DNA of 64,000 nucleotides from Candidatus Omnitrophota bacterium (GCA_021108075.1 JAIORP010000012.1:6539-70538); one strand, 5' to 3'; shown: positions 5,649 through 51,309, numbered from the stretch's first letter. Notes: generated from the letters alone by a model not told the origin. Program-made: numbers and translations.

Positions 5649-5654
5649 AACACC

Positions 5655-11719: not shown

Positions 11720-11832
11720 GACCGGGGAGCTGATTATTAACGCGGATTGTCAGGGAACCATTGCTGAATACCATTCGCCATTTAAAAGATATTAAATGTA
11801 TTGTTGTTTATATTTATTGAGGAGGAATAGAA

Positions 11833-17200: not shown

Positions 17201-17321
17201 AATATTATAGAGTAGGAGGGGATCAAAGAATATTTTTTGATCCCCTGGAAGAAAGATGCTAGCCTGTGAATGAATTTGAAAACGTCAAAAAATCCACTTG
17301 AGAAAAAAGTAAATTCTAATT

Positions 17322-17375
17322 ATATGAGGGGTCGGGGAGCTTTTCCGACCCCTCATATATATTTTAAAATTTTCA
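17322..17375 (+). terminator. Rho-independent terminator after the MCP gene
   Basis: Perfect 14-bp stem ATATGAGGGGTCGG/CCGACCCCTCATAT with an 11-nt loop, followed by a T-rich tract (ATATTTTAAAATTTTC). Confidence 0.75.
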
Positions 17376-17710
17376 GTTTTCCTCCAAAGAGAATGTCGGG
17401 ATTGTTTATCGCGACCCCATCAAGTATAGCTCCGCAACTCCAATGCCTGTGAAAGTGGGATGAGAGTTAAATCCAGAAACGAAGATTAGCGCCAATAGCG
17501 CTTGTAATAGTAAGTCCCCCGGGTGTGAACCCGTGGGAAGCTATTTTTCAGGCTCATTTTGCAGTAGAAAAGACTCTATTTTGATATATAATAATATATG
17601 TTGTATACTTATTTAGTTAAGTATTAATTTTCTTTATATTATGGCATTCATTGCAAGATGAGTTGCCATCCCTAATTCTACCATCGAATTTTTAACCGTT
17701 GATTATTTTT

Positions 17711-20700
17711 ATGCCGTCAAAATCTATGTCTTACAAATTGTTTTGCCTCTTTTTGATCCTCGCGCTCGGTGTTCATATGATCATGCCTGCCACGGGTTTT
17801 GCGCAAGGGATGATATCTTTGCCCATACCAGGTGAAATGGTGAGGGTCAGCCCGGTCTTTGATCCCATGATGATCCGGGGCGTGATGGTCAGTCCGGATA
17901 ACCCCTTTGAACTGAAATTTTTAATGGATAGCGGTGACGCGATCCTGGCTGATGAAGCCCTTAAGAAGGAGGGGCAGGGATTAATCAAGTATTTTTTGGC
18001 TACATTAACGACTCCGGATGAGGATCTGTGGGTTAATCTTTCTCCTTATGAAAACGACCGTATCATGGCCAATGAATTCGGTCAGACCGAAATGGGCCGG
18101 GATATGTTGGCCCAGGATTACTTGTTGAAGCAATTGACCGCCTCTTTAATGTATCCGGAAGAAGAACTGGGTAGACGGTTTTGGGAACGTGTTTACGAAG
18201 AAGCGTACAAACGCTTCCGCACGACGAATATTTTAGTCAACACGTTTAATAAGGTATGGATCATTCCTGAGTACGCGGATGTGTATGAAAAAGACGGTGT
18301 GGCGTATATTCTTGACTGCCGGCTAAAGGTTATGTTGGAGGAAGATTATATCGCCTCCCAGCAAGTGTTGGGTAATGCTGCTTGGGCCCGTAAGCTTGGC
18401 GTGGCTGACTTGACGGAAGAAGATAAAGCGAATTTGTTCGCCTCACAGAGCGATCCTTTAAAAGCCATCCTTAAGGAAATCATTGTTCCTGAAATTGAAC
18501 GGGAAGTCAATGAAGGACGAAATTTTGGACAGCTTCGTCAGATATTCTACTCGATGATTTTAGCGACATGGTACAAAGAGCGCCTGAAAAATTCCATCCT
18601 CAATCATGTCTACTCGAATCAAAAAAAAATAAACGGCATTGATGTCGAGGACAAAGACATTAAAGAAAAGATCTACCAACAGTATATCACCGCCTTTAAA
18701 CGTGGTGTTTACAATTACATTAAAGAGCAGTATGATCCGCAAAAAGGCGAGGTCATCCCACGCAAATATTTTTCCGGCGGGGCGACGTGGATCAATATCA
18801 AGGATGTGACCCGTTACCACAAAGAACTTCCATCAAATTTCGATAAGGTTCCCCGGTCCGATTTTGCCATGCTGACCAGGTTAGATGATTCCGCCCAAGC
18901 GGCGCCGCGCGCGATGGACGCGGCGATGCTCGACACCTCAGGCCGTCAAAGAGCCCGCCAGGATGCTTTTGAAAAGCTTGTCCGTGACCGTTTTGAGTTT
19001 GATAACGTGATCGCTTCTTTTAATGATTTGCTCAAGGGAGCTAATCTTAAAGTTTATCCATCCCGCGCGGATCTCTATCAGTATGAAGGCGGTCTGGATA
19101 CCGGAAGTTACTTCTTTACAAAATTAGTCGGGTATGGCCTCGACGCTCAGAGGAAATACATCGCGTTAAGGCGCTTGATTGAGCAGGATCAGTTTTTAGA
19201 TTTTATAAGTGGAGAGGCAACCTTTTCTCGTGGTGACCTATTGCGGATATTGAAAAATAAAGAATTGGACGATGAACTGGACCTGATATTAAAAGATCAA
19301 GACAGTTATGATGATTTTATTTCGATGTTAGCAGACCGGGACTATATGGATATTCTTTTCAGTCACACAGGGACCGCTGAGATTTATATTGAAAATAACA
19401 AGTTGGTTGCTCAATTACCCAATACTCAGCTCGTCGATGTACTGGGATTTATTTCTTTTTCCCCTGAGGATCGAAATATTGAGTTCCTCCTGTCCGAGAA
19501 TTCCATGGCCCAGTTCCTTTTTGATATCCGCCGACAAGTGCTGCCATTGTTAGTTGAGGCCGCGCAGGAATATGGATGGGGATTCCGCTCTCCGCTTGAA
19601 GTTGAGCTTTCGGATGCTGTCAGGCCAATCGCAAATGTGATTTCAAGAGTCCGGGAGCAGGAATTAGAACGGTTTTTAGGCCAGGATACGTTTAGCCGCC
19701 GGGTCGAAGACTTAGAACATGGGGCTTTTCAAAATTTAAAGGATTTGTTCCAGGAAAGGAAGCAGCAGGGGCAGCCGGTAATGATTGGCATCAGCGGTTT
19801 ACCCGGAGGCGGGAAAACGCAGAAAGATAAACGTGTCGCGGCAGCGATAGCAGAAGTTGTTAAGGAAGATATTGTGATCATCGACGAAGACCGGTTTATA
19901 AAACAGCGGGCGCCCGTGGACACCCGGGGGGAAGGATTGGGAGGGAAATTTGACTGGTCTGCGCATGATCAGAGCCTTAAGGACTTGCGGGAAGGCCGCT
20001 CCGTAATGGCACAGATGTATGATCCTGTGACGGGGGGGAATCCGATGTTGGCCCTCACGGAGGCCGGAAACATCATTATTTTGAATGGAAACAGGACGAT
20101 AACCATTGTCGCTGATAAAGACCAGAATCTTTTTGACTTGATCGAAGAAGAGCATCAACCCGGTCAACCAGCGCAAGTGATCAGGCATCATTTTAAGACG
20201 GAGAACTTGACGCAGAGCGGTCCGTTTACATCAGGTTCAACGGTCTATCAATTTAAAATAGAGAACGGAAAGTTAATGGTCGGATTTCAGGGGTATGATG
20301 TCTTACGATTGGAAGAACAGAACGCGCCCCGCAACATCTTGGCCATGACACAATATGAAATTGATTTAACACGTGAAGACCTCGTCGCGCGGATCCAACT
20401 GTCGGGAGAACATAAACATCTCGAAGCGCAAAGTGTTTTTCCCCTGAACGTCGTGTCTGACCGGATGGATGTGAACGCTGTGAGTCGTGCTATTCTCTTA
20501 AAGGAAGTCATCCCGACGGACAAACCGATTGTGTTTTCAGGAACGCATGCCTATACCCAGTATAAAGATAATAAGTTCGTGTCGAATGATCAGATCTTTG
20601 ATGTGAGTCTGTATTATCAGACGCCATGGATTGTGCGCTGGACGCGTGATTGGTTAAGGAGCCAAGAACGAGGCAAGCAAAGAGGGGAACAGCTCGGGAA

Positions 20701-23700
20701 TGCGGCACGTTTTTATGACCGTTTGAATGTGGAGGAAACGATTTCCTTACAGACAAAACCTCAGGTCGTTCGCGATATTAAAATTATGGGTGTCACGGAA
20801 GCTATCGCGTATTTGTTGCACGCGTCGCCTGAAAAATTATTTGTGCATGAAGCGTATCTTCGGCAATTAGGTCTGGACCTGAATACAATTCGTGAGTGGC
20901 AACGGGAATATCTTGTTAAGCCGGAGCTGCTGAGTCTTTTTAATGAATTTAGAGAGAAAACGGAATTTGTACGGACATATGACGGCCATGATGAGTATTC
21001 GATCGGAGATTTCATTTTCAACGTGAAGAGCGGACAGAGCGCGTTATCTCAGGCTGAGATTCTTCATCATGACCGGCTTCAGGACCGGTTAAGGGGGATT
21101 TGGGGCGGCAGCACGATTATTCATTTGGATCAGCTGGGTGATGTTGTTGTCGACGGGGATAAAAAAAGGTTCGGTTATGTTTCCGTCTGGAATAAAGGCG
21201 AGCTGGTCGGAGAACGTTTGAAGGCGCTGGCTCAAAGAACGGATCCAGACAGTTTGACTGAAGCGCAAATTCTGATCGATCAATTTGTAGAGCAAGAGCA
21301 GCAACTGCACCTGAGAGGGGTTGTCGATAAAAATCCTGATATTATGACGAATCGCCGGATTTTGCCGATGGATAATCAGATGAAAGTGATGGTCGCGAGT
21401 CCGGCCGCCCAGTTGACGATTTGGGAGAATGCGTTATCTGTGTACCAGTCCCGATATGCCTCACGCCGGGCGGATGAGAATATATATTTATCTCCTCAGA
21501 TTTTACAAAGCATTCCAGAGGCGTTCAGGCCCTATTATGAACAAAAAGTAACGGAACAATTGTTGCCTTCTGCCGGACAGACAAAAGAAGACGCTTTTCA
21601 GCAATTTTACAATAATGTCTTTGAACTCGCCTTACATGTCGCGGATCGATCTCCCTTCGGAGACCTGATAAAATTTGGTTTAGTCCGTAATGAACAGGCG
21701 CATTTGATTGTTGAGAATTTGAAGAATACAGACGTGGAACATCCGGCCCTATTTGAACGCCGACTGAATCATATCCGGTTTATTTTTACACGGGCCCTCA
21801 TCGATCAGACCCGTCGTGATTATTTTGATTACGTCAATACGTCAAAAGGAAATCCGCTGCTTGCCTGGACCATGCTTTTTGTTGATTCATACCCGGAAGT
21901 TTATAATAAATTTAATTTGCTCATTAAAATTTTTCTGAACGAATTGATGGAAAATGCGGGATTGTTACAGTCCTTCCCCTCGAATGAAGAACTCTGGCAG
22001 TACATTTCAGCACGGTATCAAGAGACTTATTCTGTTAGAGGGTTAGCGACTCCCGGGTTAAGTGCATATGTGCGGCGTTCTTTTGAATATTTTATCGATA
22101 TCGCCCGTCAAATGCCGTTAAGCTGGGACTTGATACAAGAACGGCCAGCGGTCACCGGTGATTTGGCCTCAGATCCATACGAGTTTTCCCTAACATCTTA
22201 TGCCAATGAAACGCAAGGGTATCCCGATATGATGGGGGTACAAGTTTTAGATGAGCGTGAGTTTGGTCGTCTCAGGACCTATATGGATCAACCGCGTAAA
22301 GCGGTCTTGACAGACCTCGACGGCACAGCAACACTCGTTGATCAGAAATCAGGTCGAGTTAGTGAAAGCGTAAAAGAATCGCATAAGGCCAATATTCAAC
22401 GCTTTGCTGAGCTGGTCACTGATGGCGTCTTAGTTGTTCCGACCACAAACCGCCGGGAGTCAAAAGCGGTTGCTTACGCTGAAGAAATTGATCAGGTCAT
22501 CCAGCAGACTCCCGGGTATCGGTATCGTCAAGATTCTAGGACGGGCGGATCGTTTTTATTGTTTTGGGCCTCTGGGATGAATGGCATGGATGTTGGTCAG
22601 AATAAATTATTAGATGATTTTCAGTTAAAATTTAATCCGCAACAACAGGAAGAGGTCGTTCAATCCTTGCTGAAGGATCAGGTTATCGCGTCACGCGCCA
22701 CAAGACATGTTGAGATCCTTGATGGAAAAATTAATGTTTATTATTCAGGTGGTACGCGCGTAAGCCGGGCAGGTTTTTTAGATGCTATCCGGGGTGTTTT
22801 AGATGGTTTGAATACCCTGGTCCGTCAAGACGGTTTTGCCCCAAAGGGCGAATATTCTTTGCTGCGGGTTGTCGACGGGGGAGAAAATGTCATCTCGATA
22901 CTGCCGCAGGACGCTAATAAGGCCCGGCCAAAGAATTATATTCAAAATCGTTATGCTATATCTGAAGATGAAACATTGATCCTTGTTGACCAACCGCAAC
23001 AAGGACGGGCGGACAATGACCTTGTCCGTTTGTCAGGTATTCATGTTGGGGATGATATCGATGATTTACCAGAAGGAGTTATCAGCACCAAGAAAGCAAT
23101 CGGCCTGGTTGGTCCGCAGGCGGTTCAATGGCTGCTAACAAACACAGAATTTTCTTCTCCTTTTATTGAAGAAGAAACCTTCCGCTCGATACTGGCAAAG
23201 AATATCCCACCGACACGGAATGTCGTCATTGAAAAGGTCGGAAACTTGCGTTTGGTGAGAACTCCCTGGCGCAAAAGACGTGTTAATCCGACAACCCCTT
23301 TTAGCGCGGTTGTTCTTCCCTTTGATCCTGGCCTTTTTAATTTTCGGAACGAAAACATTGATGAAAGCGATATCTTTTTCGAAGGCATTATCGAAGGGCA
23401 GGAAACAACGTTATTGTTGCAAAAGTCTCCCTTTGCCCCCGATCATTTTCTTGTAATTCCTGAGCGTGATCTTGAGCGTCCGCAGGTATTGCAGCCAAAG
23501 GACATCGCTTTTGGTGCCCGGTTTGTCCGTTCGCAAGCTTTGCCGCATTTGCGTTTGGGGTTTACAAGTTTAAAAGGCGGCGCATCTATTAATCAGCTGC
23601 ATATGCAGGCCTTCACGACGATCGAAGACCTTTCCGCGTTAGAATTGGTTCCTAAAAAAGAGGAGTACCGTATTCAAGGCGTCAGTGTGAATGTATTGGA

Positions 23701-26700
23701 AACAATGGAGGACTATCATTATAACGGCCTGATGTTCCATTCAGAGAACATTGAAGACCTTTCTGTTGTTGTTTATCGATACATCGAAATATTGAACCGG
23801 TTTGATATCCCCTATACCGTTAATTGGACCCAGGTCGGGGTGTATGTTATGCCGGTAAGAAGTTCCGTCGGGATACAAGGACGATTGGGTTTTTATGAAC
23901 ATATGGGTTTTGTTATTTCTAAAGATGTCAGCGAAAGCCGAGAGCAGGCTGTCGCAAAGTATGCTGATGAAATGCAATCAGCATCTCTGAACGATGCGGA
24001 CTTTATCCTAACGCATCAGTTTACCTTCTCGACCGAAGAGATTGAAGCTGCATCATTGAGGGAATTATCTTCCCGGTTAAATGAAGGAACGGACCGTCCG
24101 TCTGACGCGGCGATGTTGGGTGGCAGGGATGACAGGAATGAAGAGCGGCTTAATCTGGAGGCGTTAGAAAAGATAAATCTGCAAGCCTACGGGCCCGGGG
24201 GGCGCCATGGACTGATTGACCTGGAAAAATCTTACAATGATTCGCGTGTTTTTATGAGTTATATTTTCGGGTTAGCCGGGGCCGGGATGGTTGGTCTTCC
24301 GACAGCACTAATGACTCAGGACATCTATTCGTCCGCGACGGGGGCGCTCGTTGGTGCCGGGGTCGCGATCGCGACATATGTAAAATTATTTCCACAATCA
24401 AAATATAAAAATATTGAAGAGGGTATCCAGGCGTTGGAGAAAGCGCGTACTCAAGAGGAGATCCAGTCTGCGCGAGGTTTATTTATCGATGGAATGGCAG
24501 GCACAGATTCAGTATTGCTTCATCGTTTGGGCTTAACAGGTTTGGAAACATCGGAAAAATTATTTGCTAAAATGATGGGCGCAGAACAAACAGAGCTTGT
24601 TCTTCCTTCTGATATCCAACCCATCCAGGCTGATCAGATCAGGCAATTAGAAATAAATATGGGACTGGCTGGACTGGCTGATTTGTTAAAGATTGTTGTT
24701 CATGAAAAATTCGCGTACTTTTCCGTTGTTCCATCAATTCCGACCGATGAGCAACGGAAGTCATTAAGGGCCGCGATATCAGACCCTGATGTGATCAGGC
24801 GGCTTTTTAAAAACGTATCTGATGATAGCAATACGATAGAACGCCTGCAAGAAAGGGTATGGCACGGGATCTTTGATCTGTTGTACCGGCAGGATGGAGA
24901 CTCTATATTCTCTCCGGAGTATTTAGAGCTTTACAGGGATAATGAGATTTTTATGGAACAGGGGGTTTTGCGGGAGCTTGCCAATGATCAAGAACGCTCT
25001 CAGGAAGATTATCTGGTTGACGCGGTGAAATCAGAAATTAAAGCGGACAAACAGTATAAAATTCTTGTTTTCGCGACTGGCTCGGGAGCACTGATTAATA
25101 ATTTGTTGCAACAAATTTCAAATATTGGTGAGATCGTTGAATATGACCGTAGCGCTACTTCCAATGAAACGGCTGATCGCAAACGCAGAGAATTGTTGCC
25201 GCCCGATTTATATAATAAAGTTCGGCAGATTACAGCTGATGTTAGAGATTTTAAATCTGAGCTGAATGGCGAAGAGTTTGATTTTATTATTTCCACGGCA
25301 TCATTGCGCCTGATGAGTTCCGAAGCCCGGGAAAGCATATTAGAATTTTTGCAGGAAAAAGCAGGGTTGCGCAAGGGGGGATCGTTTATCTATATGGATA
25401 CCAGGGAGCATTCAGAAATCATGGGGCAGGCGGTCGACCAGATGCGGACGTCCGGTTTTAATGTGAGCGTTGATGATAAGTTTTTCGCGGGCCACAGAGA
25501 CGCGATGTTTTATATTTTTGTGCATCAATACCGAAAGAATCAAATCTTTAGAAATTTTATTGATCAGTTAATGAGCTTAAAGCGTAAAGATAATTTATAC
25601 AATTTTCTTTATGAGATGGCCGGTCACAGGAGAATCAAATTCGAATTATTAAAGGCGACGCAAACATCTGAGAGTTTGAGGAAAAAGAATTTTGAATCAA
25701 TGGTGAATCGATTTTCTGACGCCACAAAACAGATGTTTGGTTCTGTGTTTGAAGATGCACGGGTGACAGTCCAAAAGGGACCCAGTTCACGAATCACAAT
25801 CCGTTTATTTGAAAAGGATCCAGATGTTGATTATTTAGACAGCTATGATATCAGCGTCGATACCGCGCTGGGCCAGGTGTATGCGGTCACTCTTTATGAT
25901 GGGCGGAGTATCGGGAAAAACACTTTAATTGTTGGACGCGCGGTCTTGCAGGATCCAACAGTGGATAGAGTCATTCTGACGCAGCATGTGTTGTCTTCAA
26001 AATATGGATATGATGAAGCGTTAAAGGAATTGAAGTCCGTGTTATCTGAAATATTGCCTGAGGGGATGTTAAATTTTGATGAATCGGAAACATTGGATCG
26101 TTTAGCGACACATGCCGCGGGGTTAACAAAGAGTGATATGTCGGAGGCTATTAACGCCATTCCGGTCGATGCGGAAAATTACGAAGATATGATCATTGAA
26201 GCGTTTCGTTCATATTCTCGAACAGTCTATCCTTCACAAGAGCGTTTGCCTTTCCGGGGAGCGGCAAAGATTTTTCGAGAGAATGCCTCGATGGCGATGC
26301 GTTTGGCCGGCGAAGAGGGTTATTCATCAATTAGCGGACTCGTTTCTTTACCTGATGGTTTTCAAAATTTAGCGTTATATCAGAGGCTTGGTTTTAATCC
26401 GATAATCCCGGAAGGAAGAAGCGATTATTTTGGACAGGTGCAAGCAGCGTTAACAGATAAGAGCGCGGGCGCGACCTTAAAGGAAAAGGCCTGGTATTTG
26501 TCGCAACGTCTGGAGCAATTGATATTACTCGTTCAAAAAGATATTCCTGATCAAGACGCGGCGATGTTGGGCAAAATCAATCGTTATCAACTTAAAAATG
26601 GGGCAACGGTTTTAGGCCCGTTATCTGAGGACGCGTTTAATCAGATGGCAGGCGAAGACGCGTTTTTTCTTGTCAGAGATAAGGAAAAAGGAGTCTATGC

Positions 26701-29700
26701 TCAAAAGACAACCCCCGAGGAGCAGGGTTATAGTGTTGTTGCAACGGAATTTAGTGAGATCGAAACAATTTTTAAGGATGCCGGTGTGGATATGGTCACT
26801 CATATTTTGTCGACGTTATGGGAGAATCCAGATCGTGAAGTCGTCGTGTTAGCTGATGGAGTTGGCCGGGGAGTGGAATTGCAGGGACTTGTTGAAAAAT
26901 TAAAGAAAGAGGTAGAGGCTTTCGGCCTTGATATATCAAAAATCAAAATTTATGGTCTTTCAGACATGTATTTTCAGGACTGGCAGGACGCAGACCCGAT
27001 GATCAATTTTATTCTTGATGATCGAGAGAACTTGCCGGACTATTTCTCGAGAAGGCAAATTGACGTGATGATGAGTTATAAGGGCATTTCTCATATCGGT
27101 CAGCAAGCGGAATATATCAATCATATGAGAATGATGAAGCCGCACTTTAAATACAACGCCTTAATTGTCCATGATTTTTATTTTGGGAATTTAGACGCCG
27201 TTGAATCGATGCTGGAGCGGAATGGTTTTTCGGTTAAGAGGGAACGGTTGCCGGGTATGACGGAGTTATTTGTTCTGCGACCGGTCGATTTTAATAAAGA
27301 TGCGCCTGCCGATGTATCAGAAAACACGAATAGGGAGGTTAAAACGGTGCCGTATCAACAGGCGGAGTTTTTTGAACTCACGCCTGATTACAAACTAGCA
27401 GGAACATACACCACCCGAAAGGGAGAAGAATTCAATATTTATTTTAAAGATAATGATTTTGTGTTGATGAACGTTGAAGGGCAGTTTATCGGTAAGGTTG
27501 TATTTGATTTTACGGAAGAGGGTGTCGCGGAAATTGATTTAGTGCGCGTTTCAGAGTATGTTCAGGGGGAAGGATATCTGTATGATTTGATTGATGCTAT
27601 ATCTTTTTATTTAGGACAATTGGGAGCCGAAAGTATTGTCGTTACGGAAATTTATAATCCATTTTTGTCCTATGTTTTGACAAAAGAATATGGATTTCAT
27701 CCTGAGATTAAAGAGGGTGATGAACGCAAACAATTGATTATTGGTTCACGAGAGCCAGGTGAGAGACTGCCCGTTTATCTTTCCGGAGAAGGCGCTAAGA
27801 AAGTTTTCTCGCCGGGCTCAGGGTATGATGTTCTATTAGAAAAGTTAGATATCCTTGATACCCCTCCCGATGATGGCGTTGTCAGCTATGTGTTTGTTGA
27901 TTATGTTAAGGACGTTAATAACGCGCGATACCAACAGCAAATAAGTTCTGTCAAAAACAGGATGGCGATTGATGGAGAAATTCTTGAGCAAAGGAAGAAC
28001 GAATATCAAACAAAATTTCAGCGACGAGGAACAGACGACATGTCAGAAGATCACCGCGATCAAGCGATGTTGATAACCTATACGGAAAAAGAGTGGCAGC
28101 AAATAGACCAGACGTATCAAATTTTGCAGCAGTTGGCGCAGGTGGTTGATACTCAGATGGAACAGAGTGGTATGGTTGAAATTTTTGATGTCTTCCGTCA
28201 ATGGCTCAATCAAGGACCGCGGGATGCTTTGGCCCAAATCGAATTGATTGAGGACCCTCAGGAACAACAGGAAGCTTACCAGAAATTAAGCGCTGCCCTA
28301 TCACGTTTTGTTCATGAATTTGAGACAACATATGATCATGTATCGAAAAGATGGGGGCAGGAAATCGCGGGCGTTAACGGCCGGTCCTTTGTTCAATTTG
28401 ATACGGATGGGAAGGTCCTTTCTTATCCATGGTTTGATTTGACGTATGACCTGAATGACAAGTTGGATAAACTGGCCACCTTTATTCTTGGCTGGGGGAA
28501 GCTTTTGGTTACGGATGGCGCTGTTGCCAAAGATAATTTTTTGCTTTTGGTCAACAAATTGGAATCTACGTACCGCATATGGGATGGTTACCGGCAATAT
28601 TTGCGCCATGTTGCGGATCCGCTGTCAATTCAAGATAGTCAGATCGCGGATAATCAAGAAGAAAGAACACAGCCGCGTTTGGGTTATGATGAGTTTTTAT
28701 TGCCGTACCGCAATGCGTTATTAGCGCGCGATGCGGACCAGGATACTTTGGAGCAACCGCGTGAAGAATATGTTGCCCTGGTGGATGCGCAGGGGAATTT
28801 TTTGCGGGCTGTTCCACGTTCTGAGCGTAAAAATAAGGCGCCGGATGAATTTACTCAGGGTGCTGTTATTATTGTTGTCGATGAGGATGGGAATGTTTTG
28901 ATGCAGCAGCGATCAGAAGGGAAGATGGAAGGGCACGAAACCTTTGGCCCCATGGATTGGACCATCGGGGGGCATCGTTCTGATGAGGATGCCGACATTG
29001 AAGCCGCTGCTTTGCGCGAAGGCAATGAAGAGGCCGGGGGCATTATCAATTTTAAGAAATCAAATCTGGTGCAGATCGATCAGCGTCCTGTTAATCCGGA
29101 CACGGATGGCCGCTGGGTGCGCTCAACGTTCATTTATGTGGTCAGTGCAACAGAGAAGAACAATATTCAGGAACAGATGATCGAGGGCTGGCAAGGGAAT
29201 GACGAAGTTGACGGCTGGGAGTGGTGGGGGCAAGATGATTTTACAACAGAGGCAAAAACGAGCCAGAAATGGTCAACCGTGATTGATCTGTTAAGAGACA
29301 TTCCTGATTTTCCGGCGATGGTAGAAACGGCTGTTGTGGGTGTTACGCAGCGTCGCCGAGATAGCACGGTTCGAGACGGGGCAGCACTGACAACCTATAC
29401 GGAAAAAGAGTGGCAGCAAATCGACCGGACCTACCAGACGCTGCAGGAGATCGCCTTAAGCGTTCAGGGGAAATTGCAGGAAACAGGTATGACCACTCTC
29501 TTTCTACGCATCGACCAGTTCCTGGTCCAGGAGGACCCACGGCTGATGTTTGAACAATTACAAGACTTACCGAGCAAAGAGGCTCAAGATCGGGTTTATG
29601 CGGTAATAAACACGGCCATGCAGGGCTATGCCCTGAATATCAAAACCATGTATCAGGAAAACATATCAGAGATTGACGCTCAACTCGCCCGGATCAAAGG

Positions 29701-30313
29701 CCGATCCTTTGTTCAATTTAGCGCGGAGGGGGCATTGGAAGCATACTCTGCAGAGGAGTTGATCTATGACATCAAAGATAAGATAGGCAAAATAACGACT
29801 AATATTTTTTCCTGGTGGGATATGCTGTCATCAGACGGTGATCTCCCAAGGGAACAATTTTTGTTTATGCTGGATCAGTTTGAATATGCGAGTGAGGCAT
29901 TCCATCAGTACCGTTCTTATCTGGGACACATTCTTCAACCAATTCGTATTCTGGATGAAGATATCGTTGACAACCAAGAAGAACAAAGCCACCCACGGCA
30001 AAGCTATGATCAATTTTTACTGCCCTACCGTGATGCGTTGATCGCGCGTGATACCGCAGTCCAGGACGCTGCCATGCTGGGCAGAGAGCAAAGTGACAAT
30101 GTCGGTGGTATCGATCTTAATCCCGCCAATTTGAATCTGCGCATCAAGCGTGACGGGGATGGTCAGCCGTTGCCGTTTGATGCCCAACCGATCGATAGTA
30201 TTAACATTGAAGGACTGGTCCCTGTGATCATTAATGTTACACCGATCATAAACCTGCCGCTATTGCTTGGAGCGGCTGAGCCGGGTGAAGTCGATCAGGT
30301 CCTATCCCTTTAA
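17711..30313 (+). CDS. Giant (~4,200 aa) secreted or membrane-associated multidomain protein
   Basis: Uninterrupted 12.6-kb ORF with an N-terminal signal peptide. Domains by motif: PRK/uridine-kinase-like P-loop (GISGLPGGGKT...YDPVTG), HAD (LTDLDGTA...GDDIDD), HIT/GalT-like (HFLVIPERD, INQLHMQ), hydrophobic hairpin, class-I MTase-like (ILVFATGSGAL), GNAT-like (QGEGYLYDL), Nudix box (GGHRSDEDADIEAAALREGNEEAGG) and tandem ~230-aa repeats. The C-terminal ~75 aa are shared with the ORF at 47473. Confidence 0.8.
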   Translation: MPSKSMSYKLFCLFLILALGVHMIMPATGFAQGMISLPIPGEMVRVSPVFDPMMIRGVMVSPDNPFELKFLMDSGDAILADEALKKEGQGLIKYFLATLTTPDEDLWVNLSPYENDRIMANEFGQTEMGRDMLAQDYLLKQLTASLMYPEEELGRRFWERVYEEAYKRFRTTNILVNTFNKVWIIPEYADVYEKDGVAYILDCRLKVMLEEDYIASQQVLGNAAWARKLGVADLTEEDKANLFASQSDPLKAILKEIIVPEIEREVNEGRNFGQLRQIFYSMILATWYKERLKNSILNHVYSNQKKINGIDVEDKDIKEKIYQQYITAFKRGVYNYIKEQYDPQKGEVIPRKYFSGGATWINIKDVTRYHKELPSNFDKVPRSDFAMLTRLDDSAQAAPRAMDAAMLDTSGRQRARQDAFEKLVRDRFEFDNVIASFNDLLKGANLKVYPSRADLYQYEGGLDTGSYFFTKLVGYGLDAQRKYIALRRLIEQDQFLDFISGEATFSRGDLLRILKNKELDDELDLILKDQDSYDDFISMLADRDYMDILFSHTGTAEIYIENNKLVAQLPNTQLVDVLGFISFSPEDRNIEFLLSENSMAQFLFDIRRQVLPLLVEAAQEYGWGFRSPLEVELSDAVRPIANVISRVREQELERFLGQDTFSRRVEDLEHGAFQNLKDLFQERKQQGQPVMIGISGLPGGGKTQKDKRVAAAIAEVVKEDIVIIDEDRFIKQRAPVDTRGEGLGGKFDWSAHDQSLKDLREGRSVMAQMYDPVTGGNPMLALTEAGNIIILNGNRTITIVADKDQNLFDLIEEEHQPGQPAQVIRHHFKTENLTQSGPFTSGSTVYQFKIENGKLMVGFQGYDVLRLEEQNAPRNILAMTQYEIDLTREDLVARIQLSGEHKHLEAQSVFPLNVVSDRMDVNAVSRAILLKEVIPTDKPIVFSGTHAYTQYKDNKFVSNDQIFDVSLYYQTPWIVRWTRDWLRSQERGKQRGEQLGNAARFYDRLNVEETISLQTKPQVVRDIKIMGVTEAIAYLLHASPEKLFVHEAYLRQLGLDLNTIREWQREYLVKPELLSLFNEFREKTEFVRTYDGHDEYSIGDFIFNVKSGQSALSQAEILHHDRLQDRLRGIWGGSTIIHLDQLGDVVVDGDKKRFGYVSVWNKGELVGERLKALAQRTDPDSLTEAQILIDQFVEQEQQLHLRGVVDKNPDIMTNRRILPMDNQMKVMVASPAAQLTIWENALSVYQSRYASRRADENIYLSPQILQSIPEAFRPYYEQKVTEQLLPSAGQTKEDAFQQFYNNVFELALHVADRSPFGDLIKFGLVRNEQAHLIVENLKNTDVEHPALFERRLNHIRFIFTRALIDQTRRDYFDYVNTSKGNPLLAWTMLFVDSYPEVYNKFNLLIKIFLNELMENAGLLQSFPSNEELWQYISARYQETYSVRGLATPGLSAYVRRSFEYFIDIARQMPLSWDLIQERPAVTGDLASDPYEFSLTSYANETQGYPDMMGVQVLDEREFGRLRTYMDQPRKAVLTDLDGTATLVDQKSGRVSESVKESHKANIQRFAELVTDGVLVVPTTNRRESKAVAYAEEIDQVIQQTPGYRYRQDSRTGGSFLLFWASGMNGMDVGQNKLLDDFQLKFNPQQQEEVVQSLLKDQVIASRATRHVEILDGKINVYYSGGTRVSRAGFLDAIRGVLDGLNTLVRQDGFAPKGEYSLLRVVDGGENVISILPQDANKARPKNYIQNRYAISEDETLILVDQPQQGRADNDLVRLSGIHVGDDIDDLPEGVISTKKAIGLVGPQAVQWLLTNTEFSSPFIEEETFRSILAKNIPPTRNVVIEKVGNLRLVRTPWRKRRVNPTTPFSAVVLPFDPGLFNFRNENIDESDIFFEGIIEGQETTLLLQKSPFAPDHFLVIPERDLERPQVLQPKDIAFGARFVRSQALPHLRLGFTSLKGGASINQLHMQAFTTIEDLSALELVPKKEEYRIQGVSVNVLETMEDYHYNGLMFHSENIEDLSVVVYRYIEILNRFDIPYTVNWTQVGVYVMPVRSSVGIQGRLGFYEHMGFVISKDVSESREQAVAKYADEMQSASLNDADFILTHQFTFSTEEIEAASLRELSSRLNEGTDRPSDAAMLGGRDDRNEERLNLEALEKINLQAYGPGGRHGLIDLEKSYNDSRVFMSYIFGLAGAGMVGLPTALMTQDIYSSATGALVGAGVAIATYVKLFPQSKYKNIEEGIQALEKARTQEEIQSARGLFIDGMAGTDSVLLHRLGLTGLETSEKLFAKMMGAEQTELVLPSDIQPIQADQIRQLEINMGLAGLADLLKIVVHEKFAYFSVVPSIPTDEQRKSLRAAISDPDVIRRLFKNVSDDSNTIERLQERVWHGIFDLLYRQDGDSIFSPEYLELYRDNEIFMEQGVLRELANDQERSQEDYLVDAVKSEIKADKQYKILVFATGSGALINNLLQQISNIGEIVEYDRSATSNETADRKRRELLPPDLYNKVRQITADVRDFKSELNGEEFDFIISTASLRLMSSEARESILEFLQEKAGLRKGGSFIYMDTREHSEIMGQAVDQMRTSGFNVSVDDKFFAGHRDAMFYIFVHQYRKNQIFRNFIDQLMSLKRKDNLYNFLYEMAGHRRIKFELLKATQTSESLRKKNFESMVNRFSDATKQMFGSVFEDARVTVQKGPSSRITIRLFEKDPDVDYLDSYDISVDTALGQVYAVTLYDGRSIGKNTLIVGRAVLQDPTVDRVILTQHVLSSKYGYDEALKELKSVLSEILPEGMLNFDESETLDRLATHAAGLTKSDMSEAINAIPVDAENYEDMIIEAFRSYSRTVYPSQERLPFRGAAKIFRENASMAMRLAGEEGYSSISGLVSLPDGFQNLALYQRLGFNPIIPEGRSDYFGQVQAALTDKSAGATLKEKAWYLSQRLEQLILLVQKDIPDQDAAMLGKINRYQLKNGATVLGPLSEDAFNQMAGEDAFFLVRDKEKGVYAQKTTPEEQGYSVVATEFSEIETIFKDAGVDMVTHILSTLWENPDREVVVLADGVGRGVELQGLVEKLKKEVEAFGLDISKIKIYGLSDMYFQDWQDADPMINFILDDRENLPDYFSRRQIDVMMSYKGISHIGQQAEYINHMRMMKPHFKYNALIVHDFYFGNLDAVESMLERNGFSVKRERLPGMTELFVLRPVDFNKDAPADVSENTNREVKTVPYQQAEFFELTPDYKLAGTYTTRKGEEFNIYFKDNDFVLMNVEGQFIGKVVFDFTEEGVAEIDLVRVSEYVQGEGYLYDLIDAISFYLGQLGAESIVVTEIYNPFLSYVLTKEYGFHPEIKEGDERKQLIIGSREPGERLPVYLSGEGAKKVFSPGSGYDVLLEKLDILDTPPDDGVVSYVFVDYVKDVNNARYQQQISSVKNRMAIDGEILEQRKNEYQTKFQRRGTDDMSEDHRDQAMLITYTEKEWQQIDQTYQILQQLAQVVDTQMEQSGMVEIFDVFRQWLNQGPRDALAQIELIEDPQEQQEAYQKLSAALSRFVHEFETTYDHVSKRWGQEIAGVNGRSFVQFDTDGKVLSYPWFDLTYDLNDKLDKLATFILGWGKLLVTDGAVAKDNFLLLVNKLESTYRIWDGYRQYLRHVADPLSIQDSQIADNQEERTQPRLGYDEFLLPYRNALLARDADQDTLEQPREEYVALVDAQGNFLRAVPRSERKNKAPDEFTQGAVIIVVDEDGNVLMQQRSEGKMEGHETFGPMDWTIGGHRSDEDADIEAAALREGNEEAGGIINFKKSNLVQIDQRPVNPDTDGRWVRSTFIYVVSATEKNNIQEQMIEGWQGNDEVDGWEWWGQDDFTTEAKTSQKWSTVIDLLRDIPDFPAMVETAVVGVTQRRRDSTVRDGAALTTYTEKEWQQIDRTYQTLQEIALSVQGKLQETGMTTLFLRIDQFLVQEDPRLMFEQLQDLPSKEAQDRVYAVINTAMQGYALNIKTMYQENISEIDAQLARIKGRSFVQFSAEGALEAYSAEELIYDIKDKIGKITTNIFSWWDMLSSDGDLPREQFLFMLDQFEYASEAFHQYRSYLGHILQPIRILDEDIVDNQEEQSHPRQSYDQFLLPYRDALIARDTAVQDAAMLGREQSDNVGGIDLNPANLNLRIKRDGDGQPLPFDAQPIDSINIEGLVPVIINVTPIINLPLLLGAAEPGEVDQVLSL

Positions 30314-30557: not shown

Positions 30558-30624
30558 ATGATCCTACGGGTGTGTGCACCCAAAGAATTAAATCCGTTTA
30601 ATTTCAATATCAAAGGTGAAGTCT

Positions 30625-32442: not shown

Positions 32443-32467
32443 ATCATTGATAACATAAGGACGATTT

Positions 32468-33187: not shown

Positions 33188-33308
33188 TTGTTCTATTTTA
33201 ATTCTGATATTTTTGCCTTAGAGTCGAGGAAATCAGAACCGGTTTTGGTAATGATACCAATGATTGAATTTGGTCTCGTTATTCGTACTATTATTTAATG
33301 GAATGGGT
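33168..33308 (-). repeat. MITE-like element, copy c (reverse orientation, composite); left TIR overlaps the last codons and stop of hoxU
   Basis: GATACCAAATCCATTAAGTAATTGTTCTATTTTAATTCTGATATTTTTGCCTTAGAGTCGAG...ATTATTTAATGGAATGGGTCT matches the reverse complement of copy b. An extra partial TIR pair sits at 33250..33280. Confidence 0.65.
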
Positions 33309-33354
33309 CTAAATAACAATTTATATTAATTTATTTGGGAAAAGGTAAAGAATT

Positions 33355-33900: not shown

Positions 33901-33923
33901 TTTTTTAATGTGGAGATAAAGCC

Positions 33924-35842: not shown

Positions 35843-35918
35843 TGCGACGTTGACGCTGCTTTGTCCGCGTTATCAAAAAGAACGTAACCAACGAACCCGG
35901 AACGGTAAGGAGAGTAAA

Positions 35919-36299: not shown

Positions 36300-36388
36300 G
36301 AACGATAGAAAATAGTAAACGTAGTGACAGAGACCATATTCAGACAGAAAATGGATTCTGTCACTATTTTTTTTAATGAAAGGAAATC

Positions 36389-38725: not shown

Positions 38726-38786
38726 CGGGCAGGCAGGGATCGTTCCTTACGATTGTTTTTACGCAGGAACAGGAGGATGTGTTTAT

Positions 38787-47472: not shown

Positions 47473-50400
47473 ATGAACGCGTTATTTTTCTCGAACCTTT
47501 CCACATTTTCTCGAAAAATTTTATCTGTTACTTTATGTCTTTTTCTCATTCTGATATCCACCCCGGTCCCGCTTGTCAGGGCCCAAACGCCATTGAATCT
47601 GCCCTTGCCAGGGGCGGCGGTCCCTTTAACCTCCGCGTATGAACCCGCGTTATTAAGGGGATTGACCATTTATCCGGATAATCCTTTGCAGTTTGAATTT
47701 TTGTTGGATGCGGGCGACACTTTTTTGCGAGGTCAAGCATTGCGAAAGCAAGGTGAAAAGTTAATCAAATATTTTTTGGCCGCCTTAACCATTCCTGAAG
47801 AAGAGATGTGGGTGAATCTTTCTCCCTATGAAGATAATCTTATCATTCCGGATAGTTTTGGTGACACGACCATGGGGAGCGACCTTTTAGCCCAGGATTA
47901 TTTGCTCAAGCAATTAACCGCTTCTTTAATGACCCCTGAAGATGAGATCGGCCGGATTTTTTGGGACCGTATTTATGAAAAAGTTTACAATATGTACAAG
48001 ACAACGGACATTCCATTGAACACGTTTAATAAAATTTGGATTGTGCCGGAATCAGCCACAGTCGTGGAGAAGGGTAATGATGTTTACCTTATGAATAGCC
48101 GGTTAAGCGTGATGCTGGAAGAAGATTATGTCGCCTTAAAACAAAATCTTGGCGACGAGAAATTCGGCACCGAGCAAATGGAAATGGATGAAGCTCAGGT
48201 AATCAGTCAGGTCGCGACAGAATTGGTGCGTGAGATTATTATCCCTGAAATTGAAAGAGAGGTCAATGAAGGCCAAACTTTCGCTCAGTTGCGGCAAATT
48301 TATCATGCCATGGTTTTATCCACCTGGTATAAGCAGAATTTAAAAGAATCATTCCTGGGGCAGGTCTATATCGATCAATCCAAGACAAAAGGTGTGGATA
48401 CCTGGGATAAACAGGTCACGAATAAGATTTATGATCAGTACATTCAAGCCTTTAAATCAGGAGTCCAAAATATCATCCGTGATGAGTATAATCAGCATGA
48501 TGGAGTTGTTGTGCCGCGGAAATATTTTTCCGGTGGTTTTACCACGCAACGTTTTGATGGCCGTGATTTGGCGATGTTGACCACCCGGATCAATTTGGAG
48601 TATTTCCAAAATGTTGACGCGAAGTCAAGAGCGGAAGTTCGGGATTGGCTGATGGAAGCGGATAATAGTGAGTTGTTTCAGTTTTCATTGTCTTTGATCG
48701 AATACACGGAAAATAATGAACTGCACATGGACGATGTTGTTAACGCCGGTTTTTTTGATAATGTGATTGATGAACTTCACTCACAAAGGATAAACTTACT
48801 AAAGGAGGCTCAGATCGCGCCTTTTATGCTGGAAATTCCTTTTGATCAGCGGATACAAGAAGACGGAATATCTCACCCTACGACCAAAGATGACCTGATT
48901 ATTATCGGGGAAAGATTTCGCAAGGGAATTGATCGTATTTCTAAAATCGTTCACCGGGATAAACTGACAGGTCTGTATAATTTAGATGGATACATGTTGC
49001 GGTTGCAAGAGATGGTCGATTGGATCAGACGTCAGGGTGATAAGGATGATCAGCTGCAGTATGTCTTTTTTGATATCGATCATTTTAAGGCGGTAAATGA
49101 TACTTTCGGTCACGATAATGGGGATATTGTCTTGCAGGAATTCGCCGAGATTTTAAGTTCAAACGTGCGCGCTTCAACCACAGTCGCCCGGATCGGCGGG
49201 GAAGAGTTCATCGTTATGATGTTTGATAAATCATCTGAAGATGCTGTTCTCGCCATGAAAAGAATGAAAGGCGTTTTGCGGGATCATTTTCAAACGCAGG
49301 TCAGCAAGACGGACAAGACATTTTTGTACGATAAAAAACAACTTGTTATCCAGGCGAAGAAAAGGATCGGTAAACTCCTTGAAGCAAAGACCGCCGGGCA
49401 GTCGGTTGGTTTTGATATAACAAAGTTACGGGACGCGATCGCGCACCAGGTTAAGGTCCAGGCAACCAATGACGCCGAAAGGCGATTCGCTCAAGCCCTC
49501 CAGTCGGAAGCTCTTTTTAACGCGGATGAAACCGGAGTTAATCCTGAAATTGAAAAGGCGCTTGACCTATTAGCGGGCTGGATGATCACGTTCAGCGCGG
49601 GGATAACGATTTTTGATTTGCCCCAGTATGAAAAGCTGCTTCAACGTGATGGCATCAAATCCGGTGACGCTTTGACGCAAGTGGCGACATTGCTTTATCG
49701 TCAGGGTCAAGCCGCTGTTGAGGTGGCTAAAAACAGTGGACGGGATGAAATAACGGTTTTTGATCCAGAGACAATGGAAATCGATGAAGACAGGGATCTG
49801 GGCAGTTATGCCAGTCCGGCCCCCTCTTATGAAGCGCATGACCTGGACAAAATGACGAGACGACGATTATTGAAAGAAGTCAACGGGCTCCGTAAGAGGT
49901 TTGTATCCTTGATAAATAAATCCGAGACCGATCCGTTAACAGGAATGAAAAACCGCAATGGCTTATATCAAAAGTATATTGAACGGGTGCATTACGGCGC
50001 GCGTTACCAGCCTGATACGAGTATGGCGTTAGCCTATACGGATATTGATTTCTTTAAGACCATTAATGATAGTTTTGGCCATGAAATAGGGGATGATGTT
50101 TTAAAGGCTTTAGCCGCTGGGTTTAAAGAAAATTTAAGAACGATTGATACCGTGGCCCGTTTCGGCGGCGAAGAAGTCATTATTTTTTTGCCGGCCATGA
50201 AGCGCATGGATGAGCAACGGACGATTTTAAAAGTTAGAGATATTGTCAGGAGAACAACAAAATACATTCGGGAAAATGTTTCTTTATTCGGGAACAAGAC
50301 TGAGGTGATTAAAAAAATTAGAGCGCGCATCGGGGCCCTCGACGAAAGTCAAAAAGAAGGGCTTGGCGTGGACGCTGATCTGGCGAATCTACGTAACGGT

Positions 50401-51309
50401 CTGGTTCATCAGTTAACCGTGCAGGAAGTTTTTACGGATGAAAATGAAGCAGAAAAGAAAAGATACCTTAACGATACGGGTATTGCCACCCTCTATGAAT
50501 TAGCCGATTTGCTTAATGGTTGGGACGTTACTTTAAGCGTCGGTGTTGAGATCGATGATTTTACGGAAGAGGGCAAGATCCAGTCTTATCTGAAAAAAGG
50601 AGATTTAGACACGGGGTTAACCTTGATGGTTGCCAAAGCGGAAATCGCCGCCGGTTATGTCAAAGAGACGGGCCGTAACCGCGCGGCTTATCACAGTGAG
50701 GTCCCTCGAGTGTCAAGACCCGCGCCAAATATCTTAGCGATCATCGAAAAGGAACAGGACCGTGACGGGTTCAAGGCTTATTTTGAAAATAAAGGTTATG
50801 TTGTGACAGTTGTTGGCGACTTAGAATCGGCTGAAGGTGAGTTAGCGGAACAATTAGCCAGGTATAGTTTTGTTTTAACGGAAAAACAATCCGCGGTTTC
50901 TGCCGACGATGATTCTTACCTTCCTGGCAATGAGGTGATTGATCGTTTAAGATCGATATTTCCCGGGATAAAGTCTTTGATTTTAGGCAGCCCGGAGGAA
51001 ATCTATGATGTTGATCATATTGAAGAGATGATCACAGGCGCGATTGGTGAGGGAAAAACAGATCAAGCCATGTTGACGGCTCGTTTGGATAACACCCCGG
51101 TCGGTGGTATCGATCTTGACCCGGCTCTGCTTGATTTGAAAATTAAACGCGATGGAGAGGGCATTGCCTTACCACTACTGCAACAACCGCCCGAAGCGCT
51201 GCAAATTGAGGGCTTTATCCCTGTGATCATGAACGTGACACCCGTGCAGACGCTGCCGATTTTTCTTGGAAACCTGGCGACTGAAGGGGATACGTTAGCC
51301 CAATTATAG
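47473..51309 (+). CDS. Signal-peptide protein with giant-protein-like N-domain, two GGDEF domains, a pseudo-receiver and a shared C-terminal domain
   Basis: N-terminal signal peptide; aa ~40-390 paralogous to the giant ORF N-domain; GGDEF-1 (RIGGEEF, no RxxD) and GGDEF-2 (RTID...RFGGEEV); C-terminal 75 aa paralogous to the giant ORF C-terminus. Confidence 0.85.
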   Translation: MNALFFSNLSTFSRKILSVTLCLFLILISTPVPLVRAQTPLNLPLPGAAVPLTSAYEPALLRGLTIYPDNPLQFEFLLDAGDTFLRGQALRKQGEKLIKYFLAALTIPEEEMWVNLSPYEDNLIIPDSFGDTTMGSDLLAQDYLLKQLTASLMTPEDEIGRIFWDRIYEKVYNMYKTTDIPLNTFNKIWIVPESATVVEKGNDVYLMNSRLSVMLEEDYVALKQNLGDEKFGTEQMEMDEAQVISQVATELVREIIIPEIEREVNEGQTFAQLRQIYHAMVLSTWYKQNLKESFLGQVYIDQSKTKGVDTWDKQVTNKIYDQYIQAFKSGVQNIIRDEYNQHDGVVVPRKYFSGGFTTQRFDGRDLAMLTTRINLEYFQNVDAKSRAEVRDWLMEADNSELFQFSLSLIEYTENNELHMDDVVNAGFFDNVIDELHSQRINLLKEAQIAPFMLEIPFDQRIQEDGISHPTTKDDLIIIGERFRKGIDRISKIVHRDKLTGLYNLDGYMLRLQEMVDWIRRQGDKDDQLQYVFFDIDHFKAVNDTFGHDNGDIVLQEFAEILSSNVRASTTVARIGGEEFIVMMFDKSSEDAVLAMKRMKGVLRDHFQTQVSKTDKTFLYDKKQLVIQAKKRIGKLLEAKTAGQSVGFDITKLRDAIAHQVKVQATNDAERRFAQALQSEALFNADETGVNPEIEKALDLLAGWMITFSAGITIFDLPQYEKLLQRDGIKSGDALTQVATLLYRQGQAAVEVAKNSGRDEITVFDPETMEIDEDRDLGSYASPAPSYEAHDLDKMTRRRLLKEVNGLRKRFVSLINKSETDPLTGMKNRNGLYQKYIERVHYGARYQPDTSMALAYTDIDFFKTINDSFGHEIGDDVLKALAAGFKENLRTIDTVARFGGEEVIIFLPAMKRMDEQRTILKVRDIVRRTTKYIRENVSLFGNKTEVIKKIRARIGALDESQKEGLGVDADLANLRNGLVHQLTVQEVFTDENEAEKKRYLNDTGIATLYELADLLNGWDVTLSVGVEIDDFTEEGKIQSYLKKGDLDTGLTLMVAKAEIAAGYVKETGRNRAAYHSEVPRVSRPAPNILAIIEKEQDRDGFKAYFENKGYVVTVVGDLESAEGELAEQLARYSFVLTEKQSAVSADDDSYLPGNEVIDRLRSIFPGIKSLILGSPEEIYDVDHIEEMITGAIGEGKTDQAMLTARLDNTPVGGIDLDPALLDLKIKRDGEGIALPLLQQPPEALQIEGFIPVIMNVTPVQTLPIFLGNLATEGDTLAQL

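Follow-up and report, generated by a model that had tools for sequence, protein, structure and literature searches.

The stretch of DNA analysed here (the window) comprises 64,000 nucleotides of a Candidatus Omnitrophota bacterium (GCA_021108075.1, JAIORP010000012.1:6539-70538), is read as one strand with positions counted from its first letter, and contains a giant gene that encodes a single protein of 4,200 residues. An earlier note, made from the sequence of the window, had described this gene as an uninterrupted open reading frame (ORF) of 12.6 kb for a secreted multi-enzyme protein. What the note had missed is the organising principle of the protein, which is a frame common to a whole family with a second member in the same window. 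Comparison of the family sequences demonstrates that head and tail are fixed, that the near-complete enzymes or signalling proteins strung between them vary, and that short delimiter peptides lie between the parts.

The giant gene and its modules

The ORF has alternative start codons at 17699 (TTG) and 17726 (ATG), is free of stops across 4,204 codons counted from the TTG and is the sole ORF of more than 1,300 residues in the window. An identical protein is encoded on a metagenome contig of 118,899 bp in ENA (coverage 15.7) and on a Logan contig of 19,002 bp from a separate assembly, while the NCBI copy (MCD4779116.1, 4,200 residues, on a contig of 88,531 bp) carries the name 'NUDIX domain-containing protein [Candidatus Omnitrophica bacterium]'. 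Since three assemblies give an identical product, a chimera or frameshift artefact of a single assembler is very unlikely, and the single ORF of the earlier note stands. The giant ORF is a real gene of an uncultivated Omnitrophota bacterium; this lineage had been guessed before and agrees with the origin of MCD4779116.1 in a metagenome-assembled genome (MAG) of Ca. Omnitrophica and with the presence of relatives in other Omnitrophota MAGs. An origin of the ORF by mis-assembly, from a fused pseudogene or from non-coding sequence lacking stops by chance has a negligible probability, as nothing speaks for it except the generic prior that attaches to very long ORFs in metagenome assemblies. In addition to the identical product of the three assemblies, such an artefact is contradicted by the GC content (0.42-0.47) and GC skew, which are even along the ORF and the same as in its flanks, by profile-supported domains over the entire length and all in one frame, by the family-typical head and tail at the respective ends, and by internal repeats which at 40% amino acid identity are too diverged for assembly collapse.

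Domains were assigned with Pfam and NCBIfam profile scans at curated cutoffs (the gathering score for Pfam), negatives were read to E<=1, and intact motifs were read directly from the translation. The giant gene is made up of the following parts, to which the second family member of the window is added.

17711..30313, + strand: whole giant gene, an uninterrupted ORF of 4,200 residues from ATG 17711 plus stop
17711..17803, + strand: predicted Sec-type signal peptide, residues 1-31, read from the sequence as MPSKSMSYK, then LFCLFLILALGVHMIM, then PATGFA with the cut before Q
17804..18781, + strand: family-defining N-domain, residues 32-357 (about 325 residues), ending in invariant YFSGG
18860..18931, + strand: first two delimiters, DFAML (residue 384) and DAAML (residue 403), just past the N-domain
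19715..20089, + strand: P-loop kinase-like region, Walker A GLPGGGKT intact at 19796, IVIIDEDR at 19871
22298..23065, + strand: HAD-like phosphatase region in which motif I (DLDGT, 22313) and motif IV (GDDIDD, 23048) are intact
23198..24040, + strand: GDPGP1-like module (HIT superfamily, GalT branch), from a precomputed match of PF26217 GDPGP1_N on the exact protein
24104..24118, + strand: delimiter DAAML (residue 2132)
24248..24391, + strand: two glycine-rich, weakly hydrophobic segments, residues 2180-2201 and 2209-2227 (Kyte-Doolittle scan, maximum 1.5)
25046..25447, + strand: class I S-adenosylmethionine (SAM) methyltransferase domain, Methyltransf_25 at 33.7 bits and Methyltransf_31 at 29.4 bits, above the cutoff of 27
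26555..26569, + strand: delimiter DAAML (residue 2949)
26573..27340, + strand: second methyltransferase-like module, a second Methyltransf_25 stretch that is recurrent in the family
27440..27703, + strand: GNAT-like region, motif A VQGEGY intact at 27560
28058..28750, + strand: delimiter DQAML (residue 3450), then repeat unit 1 (about 230 residues)
28856..29248, + strand: NUDIX hydrolase domain, PF00293 at 41.7 bits against a cutoff of 21.1, Nudix box at 28967-29041
29375..30064, + strand: degenerate delimiter DGAAL (residue 3889), then repeat unit 2
30065..30079, + strand: last delimiter DAAML (residue 4119), 13 residues ahead of the C-domain
30104..30271, + strand: family C-terminal domain (C-domain), residues 4132-4187 (about 56 residues, proline-rich), GGIDLNP...PVIINVTPIINLPLLLG, 69 residues from the C-terminus
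47473..51309, + strand: second family member, 1,278 residues, with signal peptide, N-domain, DLAML, two GGDEF domains, DQAML and C-domain

The motif coordinates of the earlier note are all correct (19796, 22313, 23048, 23591, 25067, 27560 and 28967-29041), and its NUDIX, methyltransferase and HIT/GalT-like assignments are supported by profiles, with the methyltransferase (motif I at 25067) lying above the Pfam thresholds. The motifs of the proposed P-loop kinase, HAD phosphatase and GNAT acetyltransferase are likewise intact, but their profile scores stay below the curated cutoffs, at 18.5 bits for Zeta_toxin and 20 bits for uridine kinase NF004018 in the P-loop region, only 10.7 bits for Hydrolase_3 in the HAD-like region, and 14.8 bits for Acetyltransf_1 and 19.2 bits for IDM1_C in the GNAT-like region. 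On this combination of intact motifs and low profile scores the three units should be called '-like'. When the whole protein is compared with PDB by single-sequence phmmer, the sole match is a zeta toxin with an E-value of 0.21.

The GDPGP1-like module has homologues in the family proteins P0002, P0004, P0006, P0011 and P0067, and a profile of the module and five family relatives finds HIT proteins as its best PDB matches, at an E-value of only 0.02. In its motif NQLHMQ at 23591 the first His of HxHxQ is replaced by Gln, while the second His, which by analogy with GalT would be the nucleophile, is kept and is invariant in the alignment of the module with the five relatives. The Nudix box had been called textbook; the domain around it is well supported, but the box reads Gx5Ex9REGxEExGG, with a 2-residue insertion and Gly at both hydrophobic positions. 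The two units of about 230 residues, which had been described as tandem repeats, are real (40% identical, E 8e-60) and each starts exactly at a delimiter, but they are not strictly tandem because the NUDIX domain lies between them. The pair of glycine-rich segments is a possible membrane hairpin. Among 364 other family proteins, relatives are found only of the GDPGP1-like module and of the second methyltransferase-like module (the latter in P0003, P0005, P0007 and P0117), and the cargo is highly individual.

Head, tail and delimiters of an Omnitrophota family

A word-index search with the whole giant protein gives 730 matches, of which the best 120 were listed and analysed. Apart from the self-match, only the first 8-10% of the query is commonly shared, at about 50% identity, and the 120 proteins are 2,300-5,800 residues long and, where a source is named, come almost all from Omnitrophica/Omnitrophota. 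A hidden Markov model (HMM) of the N-terminal 360 residues recovers 8,353 clusters at 50% identity, 6,693 of them at E<=1e-30, and in all 150 matches listed the domain occupies residues 1-360, the extreme N-terminus. The GTDB species genomes hold at least 588 N-domain loci, with several paralogues per genome; the best 80 of these comprise 50 from Omnitrophota, Omnitrophica or Ca. Aceula, 28 labelled 'uncultured Planctomycetales' (a third-party annotation (TPA) label) and 2 named only 'bacterium'. Ten family loci have another family copy directly upstream. The family is very large and unnamed and, judged by these matches, so far appears specific to Omnitrophota.

The head begins with the signal peptide that the earlier note had recognised and which is predicted to be a canonical, cleavable Sec signal peptide. 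Family-wide, Ala-Gln follows the hydrophobic core in 214 of 230 N-termini at a median position of 37, the residue at -3 is small in 86% of them in keeping with the -3/-1 rule, the n-region has a mean charge of +3.5 and the hydrophobic core is long; A31 and Q32 of the giant protein are at least 90% conserved in the N-domain alignment. The N-domain that follows contains the motifs WVNLSPYE, MGRDxLAQDYxLKQ, LRQ and YFSGG (residues ~35-360 of the giant protein) and shares 45-55% identity with the 23 members aligned to it, 58 columns of the alignment being invariant. The earlier note had called this domain unrecognised, and no Pfam or NCBIfam model matches it (residues 1-400 are without a Pfam match), but it is no orphan, since a huge family is defined by it. 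Its predicted structure is mixed alpha/beta with long helices, at a predicted local distance difference test (pLDDT) value of 66, which is a moderate confidence.

The C-domain is found in 99 of the 120 members, 59-110 residues from the C-terminus, with the consensus GGI(D/N)LNP..L.LQIKRDG.G.PLP...QP....I.G..PVIINI.P...LPLLLG followed by a short acidic tail. AlphaFold2 (AF2) models it as an extended chain with no secondary structure (core pLDDT 77-84, predicted template-modelling score (pTM) 0.21), and on the basis of this model a partner is probably needed for it to fold. A search with the C-domain profile returned mostly fragments at contig ends. One C-domain fragment (P0129), on a contig of 8.5 kb, is labelled 'Candidatus Bathyarchaeia archaeon' in NCBI; this contig is probably mis-binned Omnitrophota. 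The idea that the tail works on small cytoplasmic proteins was dropped, as P0193, annotated as a 'J-domain + C-domain' protein of 153 residues, proved to be part of a full family member of 1,047 residues that had been mis-called. Both in alignment A1 and in alignment A3 an invariant Gly-Gly is seen, which ends the head (YFSGG) and opens the tail (GGIDLNP). These pairs recall double-glycine processing sites, and C39 peptidases are reported on Omnitrophota giants, an analogy that may serve as a lead only.

Between head and tail the giant protein contains seven D-x-A-(M/A)-L sites, the form in this genome being (A/S/P)-D-x-A-M-L, which split it into the head, a module of 1,729 residues, further modules of 817, 501, 439 and 230 residues, and the tail. 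The motif D.AML occurs 6 times in the giant protein against 0.046 expected (0/5,000 shuffles) and is absent from the remaining 11,606 residues encoded by ORFs of the window. Across 121 proteins, which are the 120 listed matches (the database copy of the giant protein included) and the ORF's own translation, D.AM is found 454 times against 47.5 expected, and the delimiter logo reads (A/S/P)-D-x-A-M-(L/T/V/M)-(A/T/S/G) followed by polar residues. The distribution of D.AM is bimodal: it is the commonest gapped 4-mer in about 35 proteins, and in other lineages the commonest short words identified de novo are D.AV (D-x-A-V-L), DPAA(I/L)G, N.AML and (A/S)SSP(V/I/L). Paralogues of one genome have the same delimiter type, as seen on contigs 375661 (three proteins), 3360633 (two) and 29258 (two), in the JBFWOS, JACKFL and DATDQB genomes, and in both genes of the window.

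The placement of the delimiters is regular. In three members that were scanned, every delimiter lies 5-23 residues outside complete Pfam enzyme domains and none lies inside; P0069, for instance, has its delimiter at residue 2075, between the end of PGK at 2065 and the start of enolase at 2090. A delimiter follows the head in 70 of 110 members (about 24% expected) at a median distance of 23.5 residues, and precedes the tail in 51 of 99 (about 10% expected) at a median of 14 residues. The Met of D-x-A-M stands approximately at the position of the native initiator Met of the enzyme behind it, given that enolase starts 16-20 residues downstream in P0069 and P0084 and that position 3 of the PGK profile is reached 8 residues past the delimiter Met in P0041. 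Some modules open right after a delimiter with a signal-anchor-like (signal-peptide-like), lipobox-like or Tat-like segment of their own. From the position of the Met and from these segments, the modules look like whole captured genes.

Codons vary among the seven delimiter sites of the giant gene, which argues for selection on the delimiter peptide. Two of the sites, at 24104-24120 and 26555-26571, share an identical stretch of 17 nucleotides, GACGCGGCGATGTTGGG, and the other five differ in codons. A recombination signal at the DNA level was rejected as the main explanation of the delimiter on account of this codon variation, and an internal translation start was rejected because there is no Shine-Dalgarno-like sequence and because the motifs of other lineages are free of Met. 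For a genome-specific short peptide that stands at every junction and is conserved as protein sequence, a trans-acting reader is the best explanation, and by analogy with polyproteins a processing protease would be the simplest candidate for it.

The mid-regions of the family hold many enzymes of glycolysis and central metabolism (PGK, enolase, PGM, PGI, TPI, aldolase, isocitrate lyase, malate synthase, PEPCK and PPDK), as well as acyl-CoA enzymes, a B12 mutase with MeaB, UbiB kinases, receiver domains, PP2C and MoxR ATPases. A hydrophobic segment later than the signal peptide is absent in 87 of the 120 members. Candidates for short 'empty carrier' members were set aside, as they are short matches that lack a tail and look truncated. 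A small member is encoded at 5319-8462 of locus L083 (GCA_015232565.1, JADFZK010000032.1), a protein of 1,047 residues of which the public annotation covers only the last 153 residues as a 'J domain-containing protein'; the full ORF has a signal peptide, the N-domain, cargo, a J domain with HPD, the delimiter DYAM and the C-domain. The same Omnitrophota contig carries a stand-alone enolase gene of 422 residues adjoining ftsH at 2945-4213. On this single data point, the glycolytic copies within fusions are not just the cell's housekeeping enzymes.

The second member in the window (NCBI MCD4779131.1) shares 53% identity with the giant protein in the N-domain and 56% in the C-domain by tblastn, and its GGDEF match scores 175.7 bits. 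At 44615-45937 (+), 1.5 kb upstream of it, lies a gene for a protein with a CPBP/Rce1-like intramembrane protease domain and TPR repeats, which is a candidate processing enzyme by position only.

Known systems and a possible processing mechanism

Omnitrophota are widespread, ultrasmall and largely uncultivated bacteria that are thought to be predators or parasites. It is a published puzzle whether and where their very long multi-enzyme proteins are cut, and how cytoplasm-type enzymes come to sit behind a signal peptide. The 'Archaeovorins' of Omnitrophota carry methyltransferase, NUDIX, GNAT, HAD, GGDEF and glycolytic domains, with glycosyl transferases or hydrolases, peptidases, methyltransferases and NUDIX domains as cargo set; they reach more than 85,000 residues (39,678 in the type protein, at least 30,000 in Dockerin-type examples), and their proteolytic processing is suspected, with cleavage points stated as unknown (West-Roberts et al. 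2023, 10.1101/2023.11.21.568195). On Omnitrophota proteins of at least 10,000 residues, 'multi-enzyme metabolic clusters' are described that comprise methyltransferase, NUDIX and HIT domains, and 94% of the long proteins of the phylum have a signal peptide or transmembrane helices (Nielsen and Lui 2026, 10.64898/2026.06.07.730766). The statement of the earlier note that the combination of enzymes is not a described architecture is therefore contradicted by both papers.

The giant protein is like these Archaeovorin-type and multi-enzyme metabolic giants in phylum, in the kinds of cargo (HIT included), in the predicted signal peptide and in the suspected processing. The giants are far longer and have many transmembrane helices, whereas the protein described here has 4,200 residues and at most one weak hairpin. 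A C39 or S8 peptidase near the N-terminus and a SecA-like domain near the C-terminus, as seen in Archaeovorins, were not found in the Pfam and NCBIfam scans at E<=1; of the Archaeovorin cargo, methyltransferase and NUDIX domains are present and GNAT and HAD domains weakly so, but glycosyl transferases, glycosyl hydrolases and peptidases were not found. Term searches of the texts of West-Roberts et al. (2023) and Nielsen and Lui (2026) gave no mention of the N-domain, the delimiter or the C-terminal domain. Multi-enzyme cargo on long Omnitrophota proteins is thus already described and what appears to be new is the frame of head, delimiter and tail. The giant protein is best filed in a compact class of Omnitrophota multi-enzyme proteins that is defined by this frame.

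Some better known systems offer working analogies only. The MARTX toxins of Vibrio and relatives are secreted proteins of several thousand residues in which conserved ends enclose shuffled enzyme modules that are freed by linker cleavage; they use a type I C-terminal signal and no Sec signal peptide, and have glycine-rich RTX-type repeats, an internal C80 cysteine protease and toxin cargo. Conserved ends and variable modules are common to both, but here a Sec signal peptide is present while RTX repeats and a C80 domain were not detected. The very long TpsA/CdiA proteins have a Sec signal peptide followed by a common N-terminal TPS domain, a beta-helix (Pfam Haemagg_act), and the payload of CdiA is marked by VENN. 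The family N-domain in contrast has no Pfam match and an alpha/beta model, the cargo consists of many enzymes rather than one C-terminal toxin, and the 3 kb upstream of family genes showed nothing like TpsB. Cargo of the type IX secretion system (T9SS) combines a Sec signal peptide with a conserved C-terminal domain of fewer than 100 residues on unrelated, often giant proteins, and this domain is removed on secretion. To our knowledge T9SS is confined to the Bacteroidota group, its C-terminal domains are beta-sandwiches with NCBIfam/TIGRFAM models, and its cargo has no common N-domain. Here TIGR04183 and TIGR04131 are not matched at the C-terminus (NCBIfam, E<=1), and the C-domain is predicted to be non-globular. 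Viral and other polyproteins consist of complete proteins in one frame with a short lineage-specific consensus peptide between them, but the giant gene is a cellular, chromosomal one for which no protease was found and for whose product cleavage is a proposal.

It is proposed, with a probability of roughly 0.45, that the family proteins are Sec-exported modular enzyme carriers which are processed at the delimiters. The long hydrophobic signal peptide would take the chain through Sec co-translationally, and the length of its core together with the lack of a later hydrophobic segment in most members predicts such export for everything that follows. Head and tail, which all paralogues have in common, would serve for sorting or anchoring, and a genome-specific protease would cut at the delimiters in the manner of a polyprotein, freeing the head, the tail and single enzymes. 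The freed enzymes may then act outside the cytoplasm, which could mean in the periplasm, at the cell surface, or at or inside a prey cell, where those of the giant protein would be suited to scavenging nucleotides as well as nucleotide sugars and sugar phosphates that leave lysed or tapped prey. Nudix, HAD and GDPGP1-like families are hydrolases or phosphorylases without a need for ATP or NAD, and units of this kind, free of energy cofactors, would be suited to scavenging outside the cytoplasm. Such a role would suit a predatory or parasitic epibiont, a lifestyle of the kind proposed for Omnitrophota.

Several observations weigh against this proposal, in which export and cleavage are both deduced from sequence. 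No protease domain is found in the giant protein by the Pfam and NCBIfam scans, and within 3 kb upstream of more than 75 family loci no protease or translocator gene is conserved, only tandem family members. The model of the N-domain has no fold match, which is a soft negative given its pLDDT of only 66, and the alignment has no invariant His or Cys, so that the N-domain is not an obvious protease. Much of what the family carries is of a cytoplasmic kind that depends on ATP, GTP, NAD, SAM or DnaK; examples are the GGDEF domains of the second member, the J domain of L083, receiver domains, kinases, glycolytic enzymes and the B12 mutase with MeaB. Such cargo does not fit easily with a place in the periplasm or at the surface and keeps alive two rival explanations, an uncleaved array and release into the cytoplasm. 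The signal-like segments that follow some delimiters would fit cytoplasmic release better than release after export.

It is possible, if somewhat unlikely, that the proteins are exported in one piece and stay uncleaved as beads on a string in the periplasm or cell coat, with the delimiters acting as hinge or docking peptides or being scars of in-frame fusion. Signal peptide, head and tail apply equally to such an array, which also accounts for the failure to find a protease partner among the protein's own domains and within 3 kb upstream. The Met of the delimiter, at the initiator position of the captured enzyme, fits a fusion scar, the 17-nucleotide stretch shared by two delimiters could serve recombination, and Omnitrophota giants are seen as membrane-associated extracellular assemblies by West-Roberts et al. 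(2023). A passive scar would however not be expected to be kept as a peptide under varying codons, nor to switch to the Met-free SSPV or DPAAIG elsewhere and yet stay uniform among the paralogues of one genome. This switching between genomes and uniformity within them point to co-evolution with a trans-acting reader, and the motif also brackets head and tail. Cytoplasmic release, in which only the signal peptide and N-domain cross or are tethered to the membrane and cleavage frees the cargo into the cell's own cytoplasm as a protein-level operon, is an unlikely alternative in our view although it would account for the overwhelmingly cytoplasm-type cargo of the family. The closeness of a delimiter to the N-domain in the 70 of 110 members mentioned above and the rarity of other hydrophobic segments are in line with it, and internal signal-anchor, lipobox or Tat-like starts would need a free N-terminus in the cytoplasm. 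On the other hand, Sec normally moves all that lies past a signal peptide unless there is a stop-transfer segment, there would be no reason for the tail to be conserved, and the head to stay 50% identical, in thousands of paralogues, and the stand-alone enolase beside the L083 member argues that the fused copies are not simply the housekeeping set.

A bolder extension of the exported carrier, which is doubtful when taken as a whole, regards the family as phylum-wide bacterial polyproteins. Export head and tail would be universal, and the genes captured in frame between them would be whole, initiator Met included; a genome-specific protease would release cytoplasm-type enzymes (for glycolysis, nucleotide-sugar and nucleotide turnover, cyclic di-GMP and phospho-signalling, and a J-domain partner) across the predator envelope to prey or to a separate compartment supplied with ATP and cofactors. 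In that case the cleavage points of the giants of 10,000-147,000 residues would be these same delimiters.

To the published puzzle the locus adds a tractable family of 1,000-6,000 residues and more than 6,000 clusters, with one head, one tail and a genome-specific delimiter between complete enzymes. The frame yields explicit predictions, namely where cleavage may occur, that either end may carry a sorting signal and that motif and protease would co-evolve, and the delimiters provide a rule for dividing such proteins into units for structure prediction. With fewer than 1,200 residues, the L083 member (1,047 residues) is suited to structure prediction of the whole protein. If processing is true, the family would represent a rare cellular polyprotein strategy on a genomic scale.

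Genomic surroundings

Two features lie directly upstream of the giant gene.

17321-17359: strong terminator-like hairpin, closing the upstream chemoreceptor gene
17565-17609: promoter-like hexamers, about 100 nucleotides before the ATG

With the terminator-like hairpin and the promoter-like sites the giant gene looks like a transcription unit of its own. Its neighbours are chromosomal housekeeping genes: the cas1/cas4 pair and its CRISPR array, the [FeFe] and [NiFe] hydrogenases and their hyp genes, and also def and greA. The two hydrogenase gene sets flank the giant gene at 9977-13578 and 30616-41506 and have no apparent functional connection to it. One is of the HydB/HydA-type [FeFe] kind, the other of the Hox-type NiFe kind (NuoF-like, NuoG-like, small and large subunits) with hypA, hypB, hypF, hypC and hypD. 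Just before the gene of the second family member the GC content drops to 0.35 (46001-48000), and this low-GC stretch contains an ORF of 200 residues at 46318-46923 (-) that is without a Pfam match. A CRISPR-Cas adaptation module occupies positions 45-5420, with cas1 at 45-968 (247.8 bits) followed by cas4 at 1262-1867 and then by the array at 2041-5420, which consists of 47 identical-scoring repeats of 37 nucleotides (Rfam CRISPR-DR7).

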